Below, piece after piece: positions 2,137-54,881 of a stretch of 64,000 nucleotides of DNA (positions are counted from its first letter, which is position 1; every line of letters starts with the position of its first letter). The translations under genes were made by a program, and so were the position numbers. Under the pieces are notes generated by a model. That model saw nothing but the letters and a program-made list of their open reading frames with translations, was not told the origin of the DNA and made no database searches. The stretch comes from an uncultured Thermoplasmata archaeon (GTDB taxonomy: Archaea; Thermoplasmatota; Thermoplasmata; Lutacidiplasmatales; UBA184), in contig CAWDQO010000005.1 in assembly GCA_963804525.1 (NCBI GenBank), positions 738,844 through 802,843 of the forward strand, read 5' to 3'.

Positions 2137-3470
2137 GGCTCCTGCGGGACCTCGGCGGCGAGCGTGCGCATGAGGCGAGAGAGCGTCGCGTCCGCGTCCT
2201 CGAGCTTGCGGGCCCGCAGCTGCTCGGTGGCCCGCCGGATCTCGCCGGCCGCCTCGTAGGCGAGCTCGCTATCGGACGGGAGCGACCGGACCCGGGCCGC
2301 GAGTCCCCGTGCCTTCGTCAGTAGGCGCCCGAGCGCCCGTTCCGACGATTCGGGGTCGTCGGCGCCGTCGGCCGGCACCTCGTCCACGTCGGACTCTCCC
2401 TCGCCGTCGGCGGCCGGCTCGGGCGGCCCGAGCTCGCCGATCGCCACCCGGAGCTCGCGCAGTCGGGTCGTCGCCTCGACGATCTTGCCCCGCCGCAGAT
2501 GGCGGGTCGCCTCGGCATGGACCGTCCGGGCCGGACGGGAGGGAGCGTGGTCGGGGCCGTACGCGGCGAGGACCTGGGCGTGCCGCTCGAGCTCCTGCTC
2601 GATCGCCGGCGGGAGCGCCTCGTTGAGGAGCATGAGCGCCCGGGCGGCGATCTGGGCCCCCTCGTCGAGCGTGTCGGTCGAGAGGTCCGGCTGGGTGAGG
2701 AGCGCCTTGACCTGCTGGACCGCCTCCTCGACCTCCGCCACGGGGCGACCGACGACCTCCGCCGAGTCCCGGAGTCCGTCGATCTGCCGGAGGAGTCCCT
2801 TCAGCCCCTTCCAATCGGTCTCGATGCGGCCGAGTTGCTCGTCCGCCTCGACGAGGCGGTCGATCGCCTGCTCGGAACGCCCGGCGTCGATCTCGGCCCG
2901 GATCCGGACCGTCTCGGGTCCGAACGAGACCGCGACCCCCTCGTTTCGAAGGACCGCCTGCCGTTCCTCCAGGGACCGGAGCCGTCGCCCGAGAGATTCG
3001 TTCGTGGCCTCGTGGAGGCGGGCGAGCGCCGAACGAAGGAGCGAAAGCGCCTCGACCGTCCTACCATCCGCCTGCGTGAGCGCGGCCTGGTGAAGCTCGA
3101 CGGTGATGTCGGCGGTCGCTCCTCCCAGACGGTGCACGAGGCGGAGGGTCCGGTCGAGCTCCTGCGCCGTCTTCTCGACCTGCTCGGCGGTCGGGTCCCG
3201 GGTCGCGGGGCGGGCGGACCGCGGGGGCGGCTTCGGCCGGGAGCCGGTGGCCGGGAGCGGAACCGCTTCGGTCTCGGAGAGGCCGCGGAGGGCGTCCACC
3301 GCGAGTCCCGTGGGATAGCCGCAGACGGCACAGGACGTGGCTGTGGTCGGGTTCTCGGCCTCGCAGACCGGGCAGTCGGAGGTCGGGGAGCGAGCGTACC
3401 TAGACACCTTGGTTATCGTAGAATGGTACGCGTCCGACCTTAATCCCTCCGCCAATGGCCGGTTACCCAC
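2133..3470 (-). CDS. Hypothetical Zn-ribbon + long helical protein
   Basis: ORF 2133..3470(-). N-terminal CPVCEAENPTTATSCAVCGYP ribbon, then about 350 aa of helical sequence and an acidic patch (GEGESDVDEVPADGADD). The more likely start is GTG at 3407-3405 (VSRYARSPTSDCPVC), about 30 nt downstream of the AT-rich GGATTAAGG. Confidence 0.7.
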   Translation of the reverse strand: MGNRPLAEGLRSDAYHSTITKVSRYARSPTSDCPVCEAENPTTATSCAVCGYPTGLAVDALRGLSETEAVPLPATGSRPKPPPRSARPATRDPTAEQVEKTAQELDRTLRLVHRLGGATADITVELHQAALTQADGRTVEALSLLRSALARLHEATNESLGRRLRSLEERQAVLRNEGVAVSFGPETVRIRAEIDAGRSEQAIDRLVEADEQLGRIETDWKGLKGLLRQIDGLRDSAEVVGRPVAEVEEAVQQVKALLTQPDLSTDTLDEGAQIAARALMLLNEALPPAIEQELERHAQVLAAYGPDHAPSRPARTVHAEATRHLRRGKIVEATTRLRELRVAIGELGPPEPAADGEGESDVDEVPADGADDPESSERALGRLLTKARGLAARVRSLPSDSELAYEAAGEIRRATEQLRARKLEDADATLSRLMRTLAAEVPQEP

Positions 3471-3678
3471 CGGAGAACGTCGGGACGACCGTGAGGCGCG
3501 TCTTCGCCTCGATCGCGGTGTCCAGCGGTACCGGAACGCCGGCGATCAGCACCGCCGACCCCTCCGCCGCATGACCGAGGTCCCGCAGGACGGCCCTCAC
3601 GGGGGTCCCGGGTCGAACCCATCGGACCACCGGCGGCCCCGGGCGAGCCCCCCGCGCGACACGGACCTCGACCCGGAC
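3463..3678 (-). CDS. Ubiquitin-like beta-grasp protein (ThiS/MoaD/SAMP family) ending in Gly-Gly; start unresolved
   Basis: C-terminal 71 codons of ORF 3463..3774(-): VRVEVRVARGARPGPPVVRWVRPGTPVRAVLRDLGHAAEGSAVLIAGVPVPLDTAIEAKTRLTVVPTFSGG*. This is the ThiS/MoaD pattern with a terminal GG. The remaining upstream part of the ORF overlaps tRNA-Ser(CGA), and there is no ATG/GTG/TTG between the tRNA 3' end and VRVEV. Confidence 0.5.
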   Translation of the reverse strand, partial: VRVEVRVARGARPGPPVVRWVRPGTPVRAVLRDLGHAAEGSAVLIAGVPVPLDTAIEAKTRLTVVPTFSGG

Positions 3679-3698: not shown

Positions 3699-3818
3699 CG
3701 CTGAGGGGGAGATTTTCCGGGACCGGTCGCGGGCGGCCGGTCCCCTTTGAACTCCCGCGATGCATACGCACCACCAGATCTCGAATCTGGCGCCTTGGCC
3801 GGGCTAGGCTACCTCAGC
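3699..3818 (-). tRNA. tRNA-Ser(CGA) with ~33-nt insertion in the T-loop
   Basis: Hand fold on the minus strand: acceptor GCTGAGG/CCTCAGC; U8A9; D stem GCCT/AGGC; anticodon arm CCAGA-TTCGAGA-TCTGG (anticodon CGA); variable arm GGTGC-GTAT-GCATC; T stem GGGAG/CTCCC with loop TTCAAA[GGGGACCGGCCGCCCGCGACCGGTCCCGGAAAA]T. The parts sum to exactly 120 nt. No encoded CCA. Confidence 0.8.
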
Positions 3819-3842: not shown

Positions 3843-3850
3843 CTATTTGG
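3843..3850 (-). promoter_or_regulatory. TATA-like box for tRNA-Ser(CGA)
   Basis: Minus strand CCAAATAG, centred about 29 nt upstream of the tRNA 5' end at 3818. Confidence 0.45.
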
Positions 3851-3995
3851 CAGTTGTCCGACGACTGATTCCGGCGCTCGGCGGCGGTCGGGGGAAGAGC
3901 CGGAACGACACGGAGTTCCCGGTTCCCCGCGAACCCGTGGCAAGGAGCACGGGTGCCCCGACCCCCTTTCCGTACGGTGAGGGGGTTCCCGTCGA

Positions 3996-5293: not shown

Positions 5294-6322
5294 TCAGCGC
5301 TTCGCGACTGCGGCCTTGAGCCGGTCGATCGCGTCGATCCCGTACGGGTCGACGCCGCCGAGCTCGGCGAGGTGGAGCGAGAAATGGTCGCCGTAGCTGA
5401 CCCCGTCGAGGAGCGCCTCGAGCCGGTCGTCGGCCCGGAAGATGATCCGGTCCGCGACCACGCCACGCCGGATCAGCAGTCGCCCGAGGTGGGCCATCCC
5501 GGTCGACGTGCTCGGGTCGAGGGTGGCCCCCTCGAGGGCGAATACCGCCCACCGACGCGCATCGGCCTTCGGGAGCGCATCCCAGGCGACGATCGAATTG
5601 TGAAGGAGCTCGGGGAACGCGTCGAAGTGGGCCAGCCGCTTTGCGTTCTCCTCGACCTGGGTCGCCCAGCGGCGCGCCAGAGCGGCGTAGGCGACGTCCC
5701 CGTAGAACTGGGGGATCCGCGTGCCGACGCGCTTCGCGAGCAACGCCGGGGCGCCGCGGGGGCTCGAGTAGTCCGACTGGAGTTCCGCGAGCCGCGTCGC
5801 GACCCGCTCGACCCGGCTCTCGTTCGATTCCGGAAAGTACGGGTCGAGCACGCCGAGGAGTCCGCCGAGCATGTACCCGAGGGCGGCGCGCGGCGGGAGG
5901 CCCGGTGGAAGGACGATGAGGGGGACCCCGTCGCGCTCCGCCCGTTCGGCGAGGGTCCCTCCCGAGGTCATCGCGATCCGCGTCGCGCCCTGGCGGCGGG
6001 CGGTGTCGTACGCCGCGAGGGTCTCCCAGGTGTTCCCCGAGTAGCTCGTGAGGACCGCGAGGCTCGTCCGTCCCGCGGCCCTCGGGAGGAACGGACCGCG
6101 CCCGACCGAAAGGAGGAGGCTCGTCTCGGCGTCGGTGATGCCCCGGACGAGGTCGGCGGCGATCGCCGAGCCGCCCATCCCCGCGACGATCGCCATGCCC
6201 GCCTGGCGGGGCAGCCGCGCGTCGGCGTCCCGGCCGAGCCGGAACCCCTCGCGCAGGTGGTTCGGGAAGTCGACGGCGAGGCTGCGCATCCGGACCGCGC
6301 CGACCCCGGGCTTGCCGACCAT
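5294..6322 (-). CDS. Bifunctional phosphoglucose/phosphomannose isomerase (SIS domain, archaeal PGI/PMI type)
   Basis: ORF 5294..6322(-). Motifs IVAGMGGSAIAADL, LTSYSGNTWETLAAY and LGYMLGGLLGVL match the PGI/PMI family. Confidence 0.85.
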   Translation of the reverse strand: MVGKPGVGAVRMRSLAVDFPNHLREGFRLGRDADARLPRQAGMAIVAGMGGSAIAADLVRGITDAETSLLLSVGRGPFLPRAAGRTSLAVLTSYSGNTWETLAAYDTARRQGATRIAMTSGGTLAERAERDGVPLIVLPPGLPPRAALGYMLGGLLGVLDPYFPESNESRVERVATRLAELQSDYSSPRGAPALLAKRVGTRIPQFYGDVAYAALARRWATQVEENAKRLAHFDAFPELLHNSIVAWDALPKADARRWAVFALEGATLDPSTSTGMAHLGRLLIRRGVVADRIIFRADDRLEALLDGVSYGDHFSLHLAELGGVDPYGIDAIDRLKAAVAKR

Positions 6323-6507
6323 TGGCGGGTCCGAGTCGGCCGAATATTAGGGGTTGCGGGTGCCCGGCACGGTGTCGCAAGTTGCGGCGGGGAATCGTCC
6401 CCCCTCGGCGCGCGTCGGGACGCCCGAAAAACGAAAGGGATTATCTGGGGGGCTCAACCATTCGCCAGTACTCTCGACGGACCCTCGAGGTCCGGGGAGC
6501 GAAGAGG

Positions 6508-9045
6508 GTGCCGAGTACGCCGGCGGGGGAGCTTCCGCCGGCGCCCCCGGAACAACGGCTCTCGACGGGCAACCGGAAGGTCGACGCGATCCTGATGGGG
6601 GGGCTCCTCCCCCACCGGCCCTACCTCATCGTCGGGCCGTCGGGGACCGGGAAGACCAAGCTCGCGCTCCAGTTCCTCTGCGAGGGGGTGCGGCGCGGGG
6701 AGAACTGCCTCCTCGTCACGCTCGAGGAGCCCCCGAACGAGATCCGGCAGAACCACCGGGGCCTCGCCCCGGACCTCGACCAGGTCTGGGTGTTCGACGC
6801 GATCCCCGACGTGATGCGGTACGAGCGGGCCCCGTTCAAGGACATCGCCGCGGTCCGCCACTCGGTCCGGTTCGCCGACGTTCCCCCGGCGATCCGCAAG
6901 ACCCCCGAGCTCTCGAGCGTCGAAGTGACGTTCACCGCGCTCGAGCAGACGCTGAAGATGGAGGTCGTGCGGCGGCAGTATTCGCGGCTCGTCGTCGACA
7001 GCCTGACCGCGCTGCAGTACTTTTGCATGAAGGGGGTCGACGAGACCCTCGGGGCCCAGACGTTCCTCCGGTTCCTCTCCGACCTCCGGCTCACTACCGT
7101 GCTCAACGTCGAGGCCGCCGTCGAGGATGTCGAGACCCCGGAGCGGCTCCTCGCCCGGGGCGAGATCCGGTTGTTCCGGTGGGAGCTCGACGGCCAGACC
7201 GTCCGGGCCGTCGGGGTCGAAAAGTACCGGGGAAGTTCGCACGACATCCGGCTCCACCCGTACCGGATCACCTCGGCCGGTCTCGACGTCAACCTCGATG
7301 TGACGATCAGCCGCGACACCCGACGGATCGTCGAACCGGAACTGCCCACGGTCGTGGCGCCGGCGGCGGCGCCGGTCCCGGCCGACCCGTTCGAGGTCCT
7401 GGAATCCGACCTGCGCGACCTGACCGCGGTCGGACTCGACACCTCCTCCCCCCGTGCGGAGGTCGAAGCCGCGGCGCGCGCCCGGACCGCCGGCGCGGGA
7501 GAGGAGTTCGCGCGGCGACTCGGTCTCGCGAAGGGGGCGGTCACCGAGGTCGCGCAGCACCTCGACCCGAAGCTCCTGCAGAGCGGCGACCTCAACGTCC
7601 GCCGCTCCGCGCTTCGGGTTCAACGGCTCGGTTCGTTCGGCGCCGACCTCCGGACCGGGACCCCGCCCCGCGGTTCGATCCTGGCGTCGCCACCGGACGT
7701 TCCTTCGCGGCCTTCGCCACTCGCGGAGAGCGCCCCGCCGGAACCCATGATGGCGCGACCCCCTCCGGCGGTTCCGGCCCCCGCGGAGCCCCCGACCGCC
7801 GCCGTTCCCCCTCCGACTTCCGCCCCGGCGCCCCCGCCGGTCCCATCCATTCCCTCGCCTTCCCCACCGGCGCCGGAGCCACGCGCCGAACCCCCGCCTC
7901 CGCCCGCCCCGACGGAAAGCCAGGCTCGGACCGAAAATCTGGTGGCCCCGACTCCCGCTCCCTTGGCGCCGCTCGCGCCAACGACACTCCCTACCGCGGC
8001 CCGACCTCCGCCGACGCCCCCCGGCCCGCCGCCTCGGGCGACCGCCGAACCAATCCGGATCCCCAAGCGAGCGGTGCCCCCGCCGCCTCCTCCACCCCCT
8101 CCGCCCCCGCCTCCGCCGCCTACTCCGGCACCTGCCGCAACGTCCTGGCCCGCGCCGGCCCCCAGCGCTCCTCGGCCCGCCGTGCCGGCTCCCGCACGGG
8201 GTCAGCTCCCCCCGCCGCCCCCGCCCCCTCCCCCGCCGCCGGGAGAGGGTGCCTCCTCCGCGACCGGAATGGAATCCGGTCCCCGGGCCGCTCGACGCCC
8301 TCCCCCTCTTCCGACCAAGCGGAGCGTTCCCGAGCCACCAATCGCGCTGGCCCCACCGCCACCGCCGCCCCCGCCTCCGGGGGAATCCCAGCCCACGACC
8401 GTCGCACTCCCTCCGGAACCGTCGTCGGGAGCCCACGAGCCCCCCGCCGACACGGTGGGAGTTCCTCCAACCCCGGCACCCGAGGTCGTTCCCCCTCCGT
8501 TGGCGCCGGCATCCGTACCGGCACGCGTCGAGCCGGTTCCACTTACTGCCAACGAGCCTCGGGTGACGGAGGCACCGACGAACCCACCCCCGCCCGCATC
8601 GACTTCGGGACTTCCCGAATCCCCGCCGGGAAAGCCCGAGACGGGTGACTCCGCGACGGTTCCGGTAAAGCCGAAGCGGAAGCGCGCGCCGGCGAAGAAG
8701 CGCGTCCCCCCAGCGGACGATCCCCCTGCCAGTCCGACCCTCCGGACCGATGAGATCGCCGAGACACGCCCCCCGGCGGCGCCACCGAGCCCGTCGGCAC
8801 CCCACCGGACTCCAGCTCCGCCCGTCGCTCCCGAGCCGGAGACGACCGCGACCGAGCCCACGGGCTCGGAACGACCTGCGACCACCGAGGGCCCCCCCAC
8901 CCCCCCGCTCCGGCCCAAGCGGAAGGCCCCGCGGCGCCGCAAGGCGTCGCCGGTGACCGGGGCCGAGCCCGCGGGAGGGACTCCCGCCGGCGCGCCGTCC
9001 GAGGCTCCGCCCCCTTCGTCGTCCCCGCCGCCGTCGGAGGACTGA
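6508..9045 (+). CDS. KaiC/RecA-superfamily ATPase (single KaiC-like domain) with very long Pro-rich C-terminal region
   Basis: Frame of ORF 6322..9045(+). RLSTGNRKVDAILMGGLLPHRPYLIVGPSGTGKTKLALQFLCEGVRRGENCLLVTLEEPPNEI contains Walker A, and LVVDSLTAL is the Walker B region. The likely start is GTG at 6508, downstream of AT-rich GGGATTATCT (about 6440). Confidence 0.85.
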   Translation: MPSTPAGELPPAPPEQRLSTGNRKVDAILMGGLLPHRPYLIVGPSGTGKTKLALQFLCEGVRRGENCLLVTLEEPPNEIRQNHRGLAPDLDQVWVFDAIPDVMRYERAPFKDIAAVRHSVRFADVPPAIRKTPELSSVEVTFTALEQTLKMEVVRRQYSRLVVDSLTALQYFCMKGVDETLGAQTFLRFLSDLRLTTVLNVEAAVEDVETPERLLARGEIRLFRWELDGQTVRAVGVEKYRGSSHDIRLHPYRITSAGLDVNLDVTISRDTRRIVEPELPTVVAPAAAPVPADPFEVLESDLRDLTAVGLDTSSPRAEVEAAARARTAGAGEEFARRLGLAKGAVTEVAQHLDPKLLQSGDLNVRRSALRVQRLGSFGADLRTGTPPRGSILASPPDVPSRPSPLAESAPPEPMMARPPPAVPAPAEPPTAAVPPPTSAPAPPPVPSIPSPSPPAPEPRAEPPPPPAPTESQARTENLVAPTPAPLAPLAPTTLPTAARPPPTPPGPPPRATAEPIRIPKRAVPPPPPPPPPPPPPPPTPAPAATSWPAPAPSAPRPAVPAPARGQLPPPPPPPPPPPGEGASSATGMESGPRAARRPPPLPTKRSVPEPPIALAPPPPPPPPPGESQPTTVALPPEPSSGAHEPPADTVGVPPTPAPEVVPPPLAPASVPARVEPVPLTANEPRVTEAPTNPPPPASTSGLPESPPGKPETGDSATVPVKPKRKRAPAKKRVPPADDPPASPTLRTDEIAETRPPAAPPSPSAPHRTPAPPVAPEPETTATEPTGSERPATTEGPPTPPLRPKRKAPRRRKASPVTGAEPAGGTPAGAPSEAPPPSSSPPPSED
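7655..9042 (+). other. Pro/Ala-rich low-complexity coding region of the KaiC-like protein
   Basis: About 460 codons dominated by P, A, S and T. There is a run of 15 consecutive Pro codons at 8077-8121 using mixed codons (ccc/ccg/cct/cca), plus further P9-P10 runs. It is continuous in frame with the ATPase domain. Confidence 0.8.
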
Positions 9046-10568: not shown

Positions 10569-11596
10569 TCAGTTCCGCCCGCGCACCTGTTCGTAGAGCG
10601 ACAGGTGCTGCCGGACCACGGCGCTCCACGCGTACTTCGTCTCGGCGGCCGCCCGGGCCGCAGCGGACATCCGAGTCCGGAGCTCCGCATCCGTGAGGGT
10701 TCGAAGCCGGTCGGTGAGGAACGAGGTAATCTCCGGCGGGGGCGCCCCCGACGGCGCGGTCCAGCCCGTGAGCCCCGGTTCGACGAGGCCGGAGACCGGA
10801 TCGGCGCCGAGGACCGGCAAACCCGCGGCCAGCCCCTGGAGCACCGCACCGGCCAGGATCTCCACCCGGCTCGGATGCAGGAGAACGTCGGCCCGCGCGT
10901 ACTCGCGGCGGAGGTCCGTGTCGGTCAGCTCTCCGAGGAGCTCGACCTGGGGACCGAGCGACCGGAGCGACGCGGCGTACCCGGGTCCGGGGTCGGACCA
11001 ACGAGCCGGAAGGACCATCCTGCGGACCGGGCCGCCTGGGCCGCGAGCTCCCACCGCTTCATCGGGACGACCACGCCGACGCCGAGCGCGACGCGCCCGG
11101 TCCGCGCCGATGGGTCGGGGCGGAATCGGTCGGTGTCGACGCCGATCGGAATGACCGTGAGCCGGTCGCCTGCCGAAGGCACGCTCCCTGCGATTTCCGC
11201 GCGCAGCCGCGCGGTCAGGGCGACCGTCGCCCGGGCCCGGGCGACCGCCCGGCGTTCGAGCCAGTAGCCGAACCGCTGGCGCCCCCCGCTCCGCTCGAAC
11301 CAGTGACGCGAGTGGGACGTGTAGACGAACGGGATCCGGGCGAGGGCGAGCCGGTTGGCGACGACCGGCGTACTCGCGTGGACCACGTCCGGTCGGGATG
11401 CCCGGACGAGGGCGGGGACGGAGAGCGAGAACAGGTACTCGTCGACCGAGCGTCCGTGGCGGACCCGGTTCAGAACGACCGGCTCGTGCCCGGCCGCCCG
11501 GAGCGCGCCCGCGAACTCCGCGATCGTCCGCTCGACTCCGCCGTACCCGACCGGCGGGATCGCCTGGACTCCGGTGCCGACGAGGGCCACCCGCAC
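10569..11596 (-). CDS. Glycosyltransferase family 4 (GT-B), frame-interrupted near 10980
   Basis: The N-terminal half is ORF 10925..11596(-) (MRVALVGTGVQAIPPVGYGGVERTIAEFAGAL...). The C-terminal half is the tail of ORF 10569..11645(-) (YAASLRSLGPQVELLGELTDTDLRREYARADVLLHPSRVEILAGAVLQGLAAGLPVLG). The two join at the G/C runs GTACCCGGGTCCGGGG. Confidence 0.8.
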
Positions 11597-24479: not shown

Positions 24480-24594
24480 CGCGGGGAGGGGGAATTTCCG
24501 GCCGCCGGTCGGTCCCGGCACCCGTTTGAACCCCCGAGGTGAAATCACCACAGGATTAGCAATCCTGCGCCTTACCGGGCTGGGCCATCCCCGC
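24480..24594 (-). tRNA. tRNA-Ser(GCU) with ~31-nt insertion in the T-loop
   Basis: Hand fold on the minus strand: acceptor GCGGGGA/TCCCCGC; D stem GCCC/AGGC; anticodon arm CAGGA-TTGCTAA-TCCTG (anticodon GCT); variable arm GGTG-ATTT-CACC; T stem GGGGG/CCCCC with loop TTCAAA[CGGGTGCCGGGACCGACCGGCGGCCGGAAAT]T. The parts sum to exactly 115 nt. Confidence 0.8.
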
Positions 24595-24619: not shown

Positions 24620-24628
24620 CCTTAAAGG
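24620..24628 (-). promoter_or_regulatory. TATA-like box for tRNA-Ser(GCU)
   Basis: Minus strand CCTTTAAGG, centred about 30 nt upstream of the tRNA 5' end at 24594. Confidence 0.45.
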
Positions 24629-45866: not shown

Positions 45867-45939
45867 GCCGCCATAGCTCAGTCGGGAGAGCGGCTGATTT
45901 GTAATCAGCAGGTCGGGAGTTCAATCCTCCCTGGCGGCT
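45867..45939 (+). tRNA. tRNA-Thr(UGU), no intron
   Basis: Hand fold: GCCGCCA-TA-GCTC-AGTCGGGA-GAGC-G-GCTGA-TTTGTAA-TCAGC-AGGTC-GGGAG-TTCAATC-CTCCC-TGGCGGC-T. Anticodon TGT. 73 nt. Confidence 0.9.
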
Positions 45940-46097
45940 CCGTACTCCGGCCAGGACGACTGGTCCCTCTCGGGACCGGGACCGAGGTCGGGGCGATCTG
46001 CGACGGCGAGGACGGCCCCGGTCCTGCTCCAGCCGCGGTCATTCCGCGCAATAGTTATGAGTGCCGGCCCGTCGAGCCGATTCGTGACGACCGGGCC

Positions 46098-53732: not shown

Positions 53733-54881
53733 ATGAAGGTCGTTGCCGTGCTCTACCCGGGAGGCGCTGCCGCGAAGGAAACGCCGGAACTCCTGAACTG
53801 TACCGAGCATGCGCTCGGCCTTCGGCCCGTGCTGGAGGCGAAGGGCCACACCCTTGTCGCGACGTCGGAGACGGGCGCGGGGCTCGACCGCGAGCTCCCC
53901 GACGCGGAGGTGCTGATCGCCACGCCGTTCTGGCCGGCGTACATCACGAAGGAGCGGATCGCGGCCGCCCCGCGATTGAAGCTGCTCCTGACGGCCGGGG
54001 TCGGGTCCGACCATTTCGACCTCGCCGCCGCGGCCGCGCGGGGGATTACCGTCGCGGAGATCACCGGGAGCAACGTCGTCTCGGTCGCCGAACACGTGGT
54101 GATGCAGGTCCTGGCCCTCGTCCGGAACTACATCCCCTCGTACCAGCAGGTCATCGCCGGGGGGTGGGACATCGCGGCCCTCGCGGCGCACGCCCACGAC
54201 CTCGAGGACAAGACGGTCGGCATCGTCGGAATGGGCCGGATCGGTCAGCGGGTGGCCGCCCGCCTGAAGCCGTTCGACGTCCGGATGTTCTACTACGACA
54301 ACCGGAGGCTGACGACGACGGACGAGCAGGTGCTGGGCGCCCGGTACATGCCGCTCGACAACCTCGTCGCCGCGTGCGATGTCATCAGCATCAACGCCCC
54401 CCTCACCCCCGGAACCGACCGACTCTTCGATGCAGCCCGGCTCGGGCGCATGCGAAAGGGGTCGTACCTCGTCAACACGGCCCGGGGTCGCATCGTCGAC
54501 ACCGACGCCCTCGTCGAGGCGTTGCGGTCCGGCCATCTGGCGGGGTACGCGGGGGACGTTTGGTACCCCCAGCCCGCCCCGAAGGACCACCCGTGGCGGT
54601 CGATGCCGAACCACGCGATGACACCGCACCTCTCGGGCACGACGCTCGAGGCGCAGAAGCGGATCGCCGAGGGGATCCAGGACTGCATGGCCCGGTATCT
54701 CGCGGGCCGCCCCCTCGAACGCGATTATCTCATCGTCGAGGGGGGCAAGGTCGTCAGCCCCTCCTACAGCTACGCGTACGAACCGGCTGACCCTCGCAAG
54801 GACGTCGCCCCTCCGGGTCCGATGCGCGCAGATTCCGCGCGGTCCGGGGGGTTCAAATCACGGCCCGGCGTTCGGGTCTCG
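53733..54881 (+). CDS. NAD-dependent formate dehydrogenase; ORF has no stop and reads through to 55064
   Basis: ORF 53733..55064(+). TPFWPAYITKERIAAAPRLKLLLTAGVGSDHFDL; ITVAEITGSNVVSVAEHVVM; GIVGMGRIGQRV; GDVWYPQPAPKDHPWRSMPNHAMTPHLSGTT. The family-typical length (about 380-400 aa) is reached before codon 384, where an RHH-like module begins. Confidence 0.85.

Follow-up and report, generated by a model that had tools for sequence, protein, structure and literature searches.

Does a tRNA gene whose T-loop is broken by some thirty extra nucleotides still provide a working tRNA, and if so, what becomes of the additional sequence? This question is raised by the tRNA-Ser(CGA) locus of the window, that is, the whole stretch of 64,000 nt analysed here, for which a first-pass annotation had proposed a T-loop intron at a non-canonical position (58–60), shared by both serine isoacceptors of a Thermoplasmatota-like genome. 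We argue below that both loci are, with a probability of about 90%, functional tRNA-Ser genes, each carrying a short, protein-spliced intron of the bulge–helix–bulge (BHB) type between positions 59 and 60.

The tRNA-Ser(CGA) gene and its insert

The gene lies on the minus strand and is composed of the following elements:

3699–3818, minus strand: tRNA-Ser(CGA) gene with its putative intron, 120 nt from G1 to the discriminator G73; CCA is not encoded
3746–3818, minus strand: exon 1, 73 nt, positions 1–59
3781–3783, minus strand: anticodon CGA, reading UCG
3713–3745, minus strand: predicted intron, GGGGACCGGCCGCCCGCGACCGGTCCCGGAAAA, 33 nt, between positions 59 and 60
3699–3712, minus strand: exon 2, 14 nt, consisting of U60, CTCCC, CCTCAGC and the discriminator G73

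Read on the minus strand from 3818 downward, the 5′ part is GCTGAGG TA GCCT AGCCCGGCCA AGGC G CCAGA TTCGAGA TCTGG TGGTGCGTATGCATCGC, and the 3′ part, ending at 3699, is GGGAG TTCAAA GGGGACCGGCCGCCCGCGACCGGTCCCGGAAAA T CTCCC CCTCAGC G. This is the organization of a class II tRNA with acceptor GCTGAGG/CCTCAGC, discriminator G, D arm GCCT-AGCCCGGCCA-AGGC and anticodon arm CCAGA-TTCGAGA-TCTGG, exon 1 comprising the 5′ strand of the acceptor, the D and anticodon arms, the long variable arm, GGGAG and TTCAAA (U54–A59). The T stem GGGAG/CTCCC surrounds TTCAAA, the insert and a single T; the insertion, first put at about 33 nt, is exactly 33 nt long, and its coordinates are confirmed. It contains the 8-bp hairpin GGGACCGG/CCGGTCCC and the 3′-terminal GGAAAA that had been described from inspection of the sequence. 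The unspliced RNA folds into a cloverleaf plus the insert hairpin at −62 kcal/mol (z = −3.78), a stability reached by none of 200 shuffled sequences.

Standard tools do not recognize the interrupted gene. On the whole window, ARAGORN made a sole call, tRNA-Thr(TGT) at 45867–45941, and the Rfam tRNA model at its gathering score returned the same single tRNA; neither detected either of the two Ser genes. When the Rfam thresholds were made permissive, the 5′ part of Ser(CGA) scored 21.8 bits, against a cut-off of 29. With the 33-nt insert deleted, ARAGORN reported a tRNA-Ser(cga) with a standard cloverleaf and long variable arm. ARAGORN had been named as a check on the intron claim: it misses both genes with the insert in place and calls Ser once the insert is deleted, in line with the earlier statement that removal restores a textbook TTCAAAT loop.

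A detector written for BHB motifs at 59/60 found no interrupted tRNA in the window or in 135 loci beyond the two Ser genes, and the third tRNA of the window, Thr(TGT), is uninterrupted according to ARAGORN. A third match to GGGGGTTCAAA, at 54847–54857 on the plus strand, resembles a T arm and was set aside as a chance occurrence, having neither a tRNA context nor an Rfam match. When ARAGORN was run with its intron search on every locus, most calls were spurious, their supposed introns spanning hundreds to thousands of bases, and this approach was discarded.

The tRNA-Ser(GCT) gene

The claim that both isoacceptors are interrupted holds: a 31-nt insert occupies the same T-loop position in tRNA-Ser(GCT).

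24480–24594, minus strand: tRNA-Ser(GCT) gene with its putative intron, 115 nt; exon 1 at 24525–24594, exon 2 at 24480–24493
24494–24524, minus strand: predicted intron, CGGGTGCCGGGACCGACCGGCGGCCGGAAAT, 31 nt, at 59/60

Its Rfam score, 25.1 bits, is likewise below threshold, and ARAGORN calls a tRNA-Ser when the insert is removed. The junctions can be drawn as a BHB with TTCA/GGAA as central helix and bulges AA/C and AT/T, the slash marking the predicted cut.

For comparison, metagenomes were scanned with the anticodon arm of this gene, and matches were obtained from many archaeal lineages. All copies sharing the body of the window gene (variable arm GGTGATTTCACC, or GGTGCTTGCACC in one copy) carry an insert of 30–34 nt. 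These homologous introns comprise 27 distinct sequences in which the layout is kept with compensatory changes: the strand opposite U54–A57 reads [G/T]-G-[A/G]-[A/G], and each of the first eight positions of the inner helix is paired in 78–100% of cases, by GC, AU, GU, CG and UA pairs. Nine further copies are insert-free and read GGGGGTTC(A/G)AATCCCCC; they have the same acceptor and T stems and different variable arms. In other archaeal lineages represented among the metagenome loci, Ser(GCT) genes are disrupted differently: the T-loop insert of L236 measures 37 nt and forms a perfect central helix with TGAA, those of L155, L178 and L230–L232 are longer, and L188 and L190 have inserts located in the variable-arm region.

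A bulge–helix–bulge motif at the junctions

That a BHB motif should be recognizable at the junctions had been named as a check on the proposal. Such a motif can be drawn, and it is kept, with compensatory changes, across 112 distinct Ser(CGA) introns. In the window gene its elements would be as follows (i1, i2 and so on denote intron positions):

3748–3751, minus strand: 5′ strand of the central helix, U54 U55 C56 A57 (exon), partner GGAA at 3715–3718
3745–3747, minus strand: 5′ bulge, A58 A59 / G(i1); predicted 5′ splice site 3746/3745
3737–3744, minus strand: 5′ strand of the inner helix h′, GGGACCGG, i2–i9
3719–3726, minus strand: 3′ strand of the inner helix h′, CCGGTCCC, i20–i27
3715–3718, minus strand: 3′ strand of the central helix, GGAA, i28–i31 (G•A57, G-C56, A-U55, A-U54)
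3712–3714, minus strand: 3′ bulge, A A / U60; predicted 3′ splice site 3713/3712

The outer helix h corresponds to the invariant 5-bp T stem and the inner helix h′ to the 8-bp hairpin of the intron. Four stacked positions separate the two 3-nt bulges, AAG on the 5′ strand and AAU on the 3′ strand. The central helix consists of three standard pairs, made by U54, U55 and C56, and a non-standard A•G at A57, the base facing A57 being G in 94% and A in 6% of the Ser(CGA) introns. The motif is consequently not the strictest form of 3-4-3 hBHBh′. In two other metagenomic Ser(GCT) lineages, the A57 partner is U (TGAA in L236, TGGA in L145), giving a full 4-bp central helix, which supports counting A57•G as its fourth position.

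In a BHB motif, each bulge is cleaved behind its second base. In the window alone, a run of A residues leaves positions 56/57 to 59/60 indistinguishable. The 3′ bulge bases vary in the relatives, and no other cut gives UUCAAAU throughout; the intron position, first proposed as 58–60, is on this comparison exactly 59/60, with predicted cuts at A59/i1 and i33/U60. Cutting there and joining the exons gives the same junction as in natural intron-less copies, whose score with the Rfam tRNA model is 57.5 bits. The spliced RNAs are predicted to read ...GGGAGUUCAAA/UCUCCC... for Ser(CGA) and ...GGGGGUUCAAA/UCCCCC... for Ser(GCT), the slash marking the junction, and to measure 87 and 84 nt, respectively, without CCA.

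Thermodynamic folding did not predict the 3-bp UUC/GAR helix and placed a 7 × 7 internal loop there instead. With the nearest-neighbour model, the BHB conformer is 2.9 kcal/mol less stable than the minimum free energy (MFE) structure for CGA (−24.5 versus −27.4 kcal/mol) and 5.5 kcal/mol less stable for GCT (−24.6 versus −30.1 kcal/mol). Similarly, RNAalifold applied to 102 T arms predicted the T stem and the inner helix, the 3-bp central helix being absent. Since both approaches omit the central helix, folding energy is not usable as a test of the motif, and pairs were counted across relatives instead.

Conservation in related genomes

Seven further genomes, in which the identity of the neighbouring isomerase falls from 87% to 54%, were the first relatives compared; all have the insert at the same site, with essentially identical exons and different insert sequences. 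A species-representative genome collection was then scanned for the exact 21-nt anticodon arm only, a pattern blind to the T-loop and to the insert; the scan is a sample of at least 120 loci in which anticodon-arm identity is partly imposed by the search. Among the 120 loci listed, 108, all from Thermoplasmata, have the same gene with an insert at the same T-loop position. Six have the same tRNA body without insert, three are cut by contig ends, three are insert-free tRNA-Ser genes from other lineages (two Hydrothermarchaeota MAGs and one labelled Methanobacteriota) and one is a chance match in an actinomycete; these categories total 121 because L055, which has an intron-bearing and an intron-less copy, is counted twice. 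Recurrence in 108 of the 120 loci listed, by a scan that did not require the insert, places its position far beyond chance, and the T-loop intron, as predicted here, is conserved in more than 100 related species.

Pooling the scan loci listed with those found earlier gave the 112 distinct Ser(CGA) introns, of which 102 are 33 nt long, six 30 nt and four 32 nt. As a side observation, such constancy of length at a mean pairwise identity of 54% is not explained by the BHB alone. Identity is lower in the interior (46%) and in the hairpin loop (34%). By comparison, exon 1 occurs in only nine variants among 106 complete copies from related genomes, and exon 2, the sequence of which was required by the classifying pattern, is identical in 120 of 120 intron-bearing copies.

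The bases conserved inside the insert are exactly those that a BHB requires. The i2:i(N−6) pair is always G-C, and the intron strand opposite U54–A57 reads [G/A]-G-[A/G]-[G/A, rarely C]. While the layout persists, the bulge bases change freely, both in the 112 Ser(CGA) introns and in the 27 Ser(GCT) introns: i1 is G in 94, A in 11, C in six and T in one of the former, and their last two bases, the first two of the 3′ bulge, are AC in 54, AG in 22, AA in 12 and others, including GC and AT, in the remainder. Pair counting was performed on an alignment of the 102 T arms with 33-nt introns (A3, from loci L001–L135). The BHB pairing was satisfied in 88.0% of cells, compared with 79.6 ± 0.6% in shuffles, and the covariation score was 0.240 versus 0.123, neither value being equalled in 500 shuffles; when the partners were slid by one to three columns, pairing fell to 34–67%. 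In the inner helix, both partners have changed in eight of the nine pairs. Of the central-helix cells, 98.7% are paired, and changes there are restricted to A↔G exchanges opposite U54 and U55.

The six intron-less copies (in L055, L041, L063, L079, L102 and L103) read GGGAGTTCAAATCTCCC, the junction predicted to result from splicing, with its TTCAAAT loop. In L055, a 2.9-kb contig of the MAG JOPF193, an intron-bearing copy (254–373) and an intron-less copy (1342–1428) lie 1 kb apart, both on the minus strand. This pair is a natural control for the effect of the insert on detectability: the intron-less copy scores 57.5 bits with the Rfam tRNA model, and the interrupted copy 21.8 bits. The two copies have near-identical promoters, GAGAACG[A/T]CCAAATA[G/C]GCGCGACGCTC, and different variable arms, and an ORF is located between them.

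Promoters and codon usage

Candidate promoter elements are present upstream of both genes:

3844–3848, minus strand: TATA-like box AAATA of Ser(CGA), −30 to −26
3853–3858, minus strand: A-rich BRE-like box of Ser(CGA)
24621–24626, minus strand: TATA-like box TTTAAG of Ser(GCT), −32 to −27, read from the window sequence alone

Upstream of Ser(CGA), 120 distinct sequences, drawn from genomes with a G+C content of about 70%, are 93–97% A/T at positions −30 to −28; a further A-rich box, from −39 to −36, completes a BRE/TATA arrangement. The Ser(CGA) locus displays the cloverleaf, long variable arm, Ser anticodon, G73, purifying selection and promoter of a class II tRNA-Ser.

Of 114 serine codons counted in five confident window genes, 51 (45%) are TCG, the commonest, and 23 (20%) are AGC, which ranks third. 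AGY codons are read by tRNAs with a GCU anticodon only. Given this heavy use of UCG and AGC and the exclusive role of the GCU class in reading AGY, both tRNAs must work; the inserts must thus be either removed or tolerated, and the conserved BHB argues for removal.

Removal, retention or decay of the insert

Tolerance would mean that the insert is never spliced and stays in the mature tRNA as an expansion of the T-loop with an additional hairpin. The MFE fold, a plain cloverleaf plus this hairpin, is what such a molecule would look like. A 7-nt T-loop is, however, required for the T-loop/D-loop elbow according to established knowledge of tRNA; besides, the insert bases that are conserved are those forming the BHB with U54–C56, the hairpin loop being left free (34% identity), and copies with the same body and no intron exist. 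We therefore regard retention as very improbable. Still less credible, to the point of being practically negligible, is the idea that the loci are decaying tRNA pseudogenes hit by a random insertion, even though both covariance-based and heuristic tRNA finders give them sub-threshold scores. Covariance models had indeed been put forward in the first-pass annotation as a check that might expose a pseudogene; the sub-threshold scores materialized (21.8 and 25.1 bits), but the pseudogene verdict does not follow from them. Exons that are near-invariant in more than 100 species-level genomes, next to an insert whose identity drops to 54%, together with the conserved upstream BRE/TATA-like box, argue that the Ser(CGA) locus is not a pseudogene; the insert itself is conserved in position and nearly constant in length, and among the serine codons of the five window genes the cognate UCG ranks first and AGC third.

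The intron could also be spliced and yet persist through a role of its own. The 33-nt length found in 102 of 112 distinct introns in spite of 54% identity would fit this view, as would the retention in L055 of an intron-bearing gene only 1 kb from an intron-less copy. On the other hand, no intron sequence is conserved beyond the needs of the BHB, no C/D-box or guide-like element was recognized, the Ser(GCT) intron is more variable in length (30 to 34 nt), and the constant length could be accounted for by a hairpin rich in G+C that is simply inherited and rarely acquires indels. On balance, we judge a role of this kind highly unlikely. A broader proposal, somewhat speculative and in our opinion unlikely, would make the intron a selected, clade-defining feature of Lutacidiplasmatales Ser-tRNAs, with its own role and dependent on an independently broadened specificity of the tRNA splicing endonuclease (EndA). 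Such a role may, for example, be exerted by the excised or circular 33-nt RNA, by shielding of the 3′ half of the gene from integrating elements or by control of T-loop modification. If true, an EndA going beyond the strict α′2 type of cultured relatives would be needed to process an intron with A•G in its central helix.

Proposed splicing pathway

Under the favoured reading, that of functional genes with a spliced BHB intron, the steps of cleavage and ligation and their order are inferred from established archaeal tRNA splicing. A BRE/TATA-type promoter of its own would drive transcription of each Ser gene. The T stem (49–53/61–65) of the precursor would serve as outer helix, U54-U55-C56-A57 would pair with the 3′-proximal GGAA of the intron to form the central helix of four positions (three standard pairs and A•G), the two 3-nt bulges, one on each strand, would consist of A58-A59-i1 and i(N−1)-i(N)-U60, and the hairpin of the intron would provide the inner helix. 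EndA would then cleave each bulge behind its second base, leaving 2′,3′-cyclic phosphate and 5′-OH ends. Ligation of the exons by an enzyme of the RtcB type would re-form the T-loop UUCAAAU, and the same ligase would probably circularize the excised intron. T-loop modification would follow, as well as addition of the CCA, since the latter is not encoded.

A point against this reading is that both the α4 and the α′2 EndA of Euryarchaeota, including Thermoplasmatales, are described as needing the strict 3-4-3 motif (PMC3239211, PMC5829648), the EndA of cultured Thermoplasmatales being reported as α′2 (PMC5829648). The homodimeric enzyme of Ferroplasma is reported to cleave minimal BHB substrates (PMC8707768). 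The EndA of the present host is likely to be of the strict type as well. A phmmer search with Methanocaldococcus jannaschii EndA (a query identical to PDB 1a79) against ORFs of at least 70 aa in the 1.8 Mb of DNA examined revealed no EndA gene.

Relation to known archaeal tRNA introns

The geometry of the putative Ser introns is that of the canonical intron at 37/38, with the T arm taking the place of the anticodon arm. In both cases the outer helix is a 5-bp stem closing a 7-nt loop, the intron follows the sixth base of the loop, four loop bases pair with the 3′ part of the intron, and 3-nt bulges lie on opposite strands; the EndA and RtcB machinery is presumed to be common to the two. In the T arm, the exon strand is the universally conserved UUCA, which forces the intron strand to be YGAA-like; the GGAR found here leaves the A•G.

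Position 59/60 is a listed non-canonical intron position (PMC4090602). The closest parallel is provided by ARMAN-2 (Ca. Micrarchaeum acidiphilum), in which tRNA-Cys(GCA) and tRNA-Pro(GGG) are interrupted at this very site by a T-arm motif of the BHB type: pre-tRNA-Cys contains a 13-nt hBH intron at 59/60 that is cleaved in vitro by its own ε2 EndA, and pre-tRNA-Pro contains strict motifs at 53/54 and 59/60 (PMC3239211). ARMAN-2 differs from the present case in belonging to a DPANN phylum and in the isotypes concerned. Its tRNA-Pro intron has a strict hBHBh′ motif, whereas that of tRNA-Cys is a relaxed hBH, processed by a three-unit ε2 EndA of broad specificity (PMC3239211). The introns described here, by contrast, are 31–33 nt long, have both bulges, reside in Ser(CGA) and Ser(GCT), and are conserved throughout an order-level clade of Thermoplasmatota.

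Non-canonical introns are described as being concentrated in Crenarchaeota, Thaumarchaeota, Nanoarchaeota and some DPANN and Asgard archaea (PMC4033280, PMC8450103, PMC5829648). Those of Thermoproteales, Thaumarchaeota and other groups likewise depend on a BHB, occur outside 37/38, including at 59/60 (PMC4090602, PMC4033280, PMC8450103), and are also missed by tRNA finders unless these are intron-aware. They differ in being numerous in each genome, often with relaxed motifs, in being served by an (αβ)2 EndA with a specificity loop, and in that similar introns are found in many tRNAs, suggesting transposition. Here, the interruption is seen in two Ser genes only, and Thr(TGT) of the window is intact. 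T-arm introns of nucleomorphs and of Cyanidioschyzon merolae are similarly removed by a protein endonuclease (PMC4090602, PMC9602550); they are eukaryotic, some being just 3 nt long, and there is no reason to assume common descent.

The T-loop BHB intron is a type already known in other archaea; no new mechanism is involved. We found no report of T-loop introns in Thermoplasmatota in the literature searched, the coverage of which was incomplete, and the word 'intron' is absent from the description of Lutacidiplasmatales by Sheridan et al. 2022 (PMC9287336). An intron at a non-canonical position would here extend over a whole clade in an order of Thermoplasmatota, a phylum whose cultured Thermoplasmatales are cited as having a strict-type EndA. 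Specialists may be interested in its order-level conservation, its restriction to Ser genes as far as seen, the A•G of the central helix, the near-fixed length of 33 nt, the coexistence of intron-less copies and the probably strict-type EndA of the host. The more than 100 natural variants amount to a mutational scan of a T-arm BHB already carried out by nature, and the coexisting intron-less copies should be useful for studying intron gain and loss. In practical terms, Lutacidiplasmatales MAGs annotated with ARAGORN or Rfam will seem to be devoid of tRNA-Ser(CGA) and tRNA-Ser(GCT), and gene callers run spurious or over-extended ORFs across the Ser(CGA) tRNA. The archaeal mode of tRNAscan-SE 2.0 may well call such introns routinely.

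Host lineage and gene neighbourhood

The attribution to a Thermoplasmatota-like genome can be narrowed: the host lies within or beside Lutacidiplasmatales. The window has a G+C content of 70.3%, and Lutacidiplasmatales, formerly TMEG (Terrestrial Miscellaneous Euryarchaeota Group), have been described with about 69% G+C and genomes of about 2.1 Mb (Sheridan et al. 2022, PMC9287336). Matches among the scan loci listed include MAGs of the AcS and SubAcS series, UBA184, 'Ca. Lutacidiplasmatales archaeon GcC5-34' and 'Ca. Lutacidiplasma silvani AcS3-62', the last (L135) having nearly the same intron as the window. The phosphoglucose/phosphomannose isomerase gene next to tRNA-Ser(CGA) (5294–6322, minus strand) encodes a protein found in identical form on soil metagenome contigs, and its homologues are named 'Thermoplasmata archaeon'.

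Synteny around the tRNA is conserved and comprises the isomerase, the tRNA, a small ORF resembling ThiS/SAMP (small archaeal modifier protein), two unknown genes and TFIIB. The small ORF (about 71 aa, 3463–3678, minus strand), directly downstream of tRNA-Ser(CGA) and with a C-terminus ending in TFSGG, is found at the same position in relatives; its Pfam matches are weak and below threshold (SAMP2, 18.5 bits; ThiS, 18.7 bits). Gene callers extend this ORF in the 5′ direction over the tRNA, as in L007, where the predicted gene occupies 11140–11442 and the tRNA 11087–11206. On the other side of the isomerase, a KaiC/RecA-type ATPase ORF (6322–9045, plus strand), the equivalents of which in relatives match PF06745, has a very long, proline-rich C-terminal tail of low complexity, and is adjoined by a second ATPase gene of the same family, encoding 256 aa.
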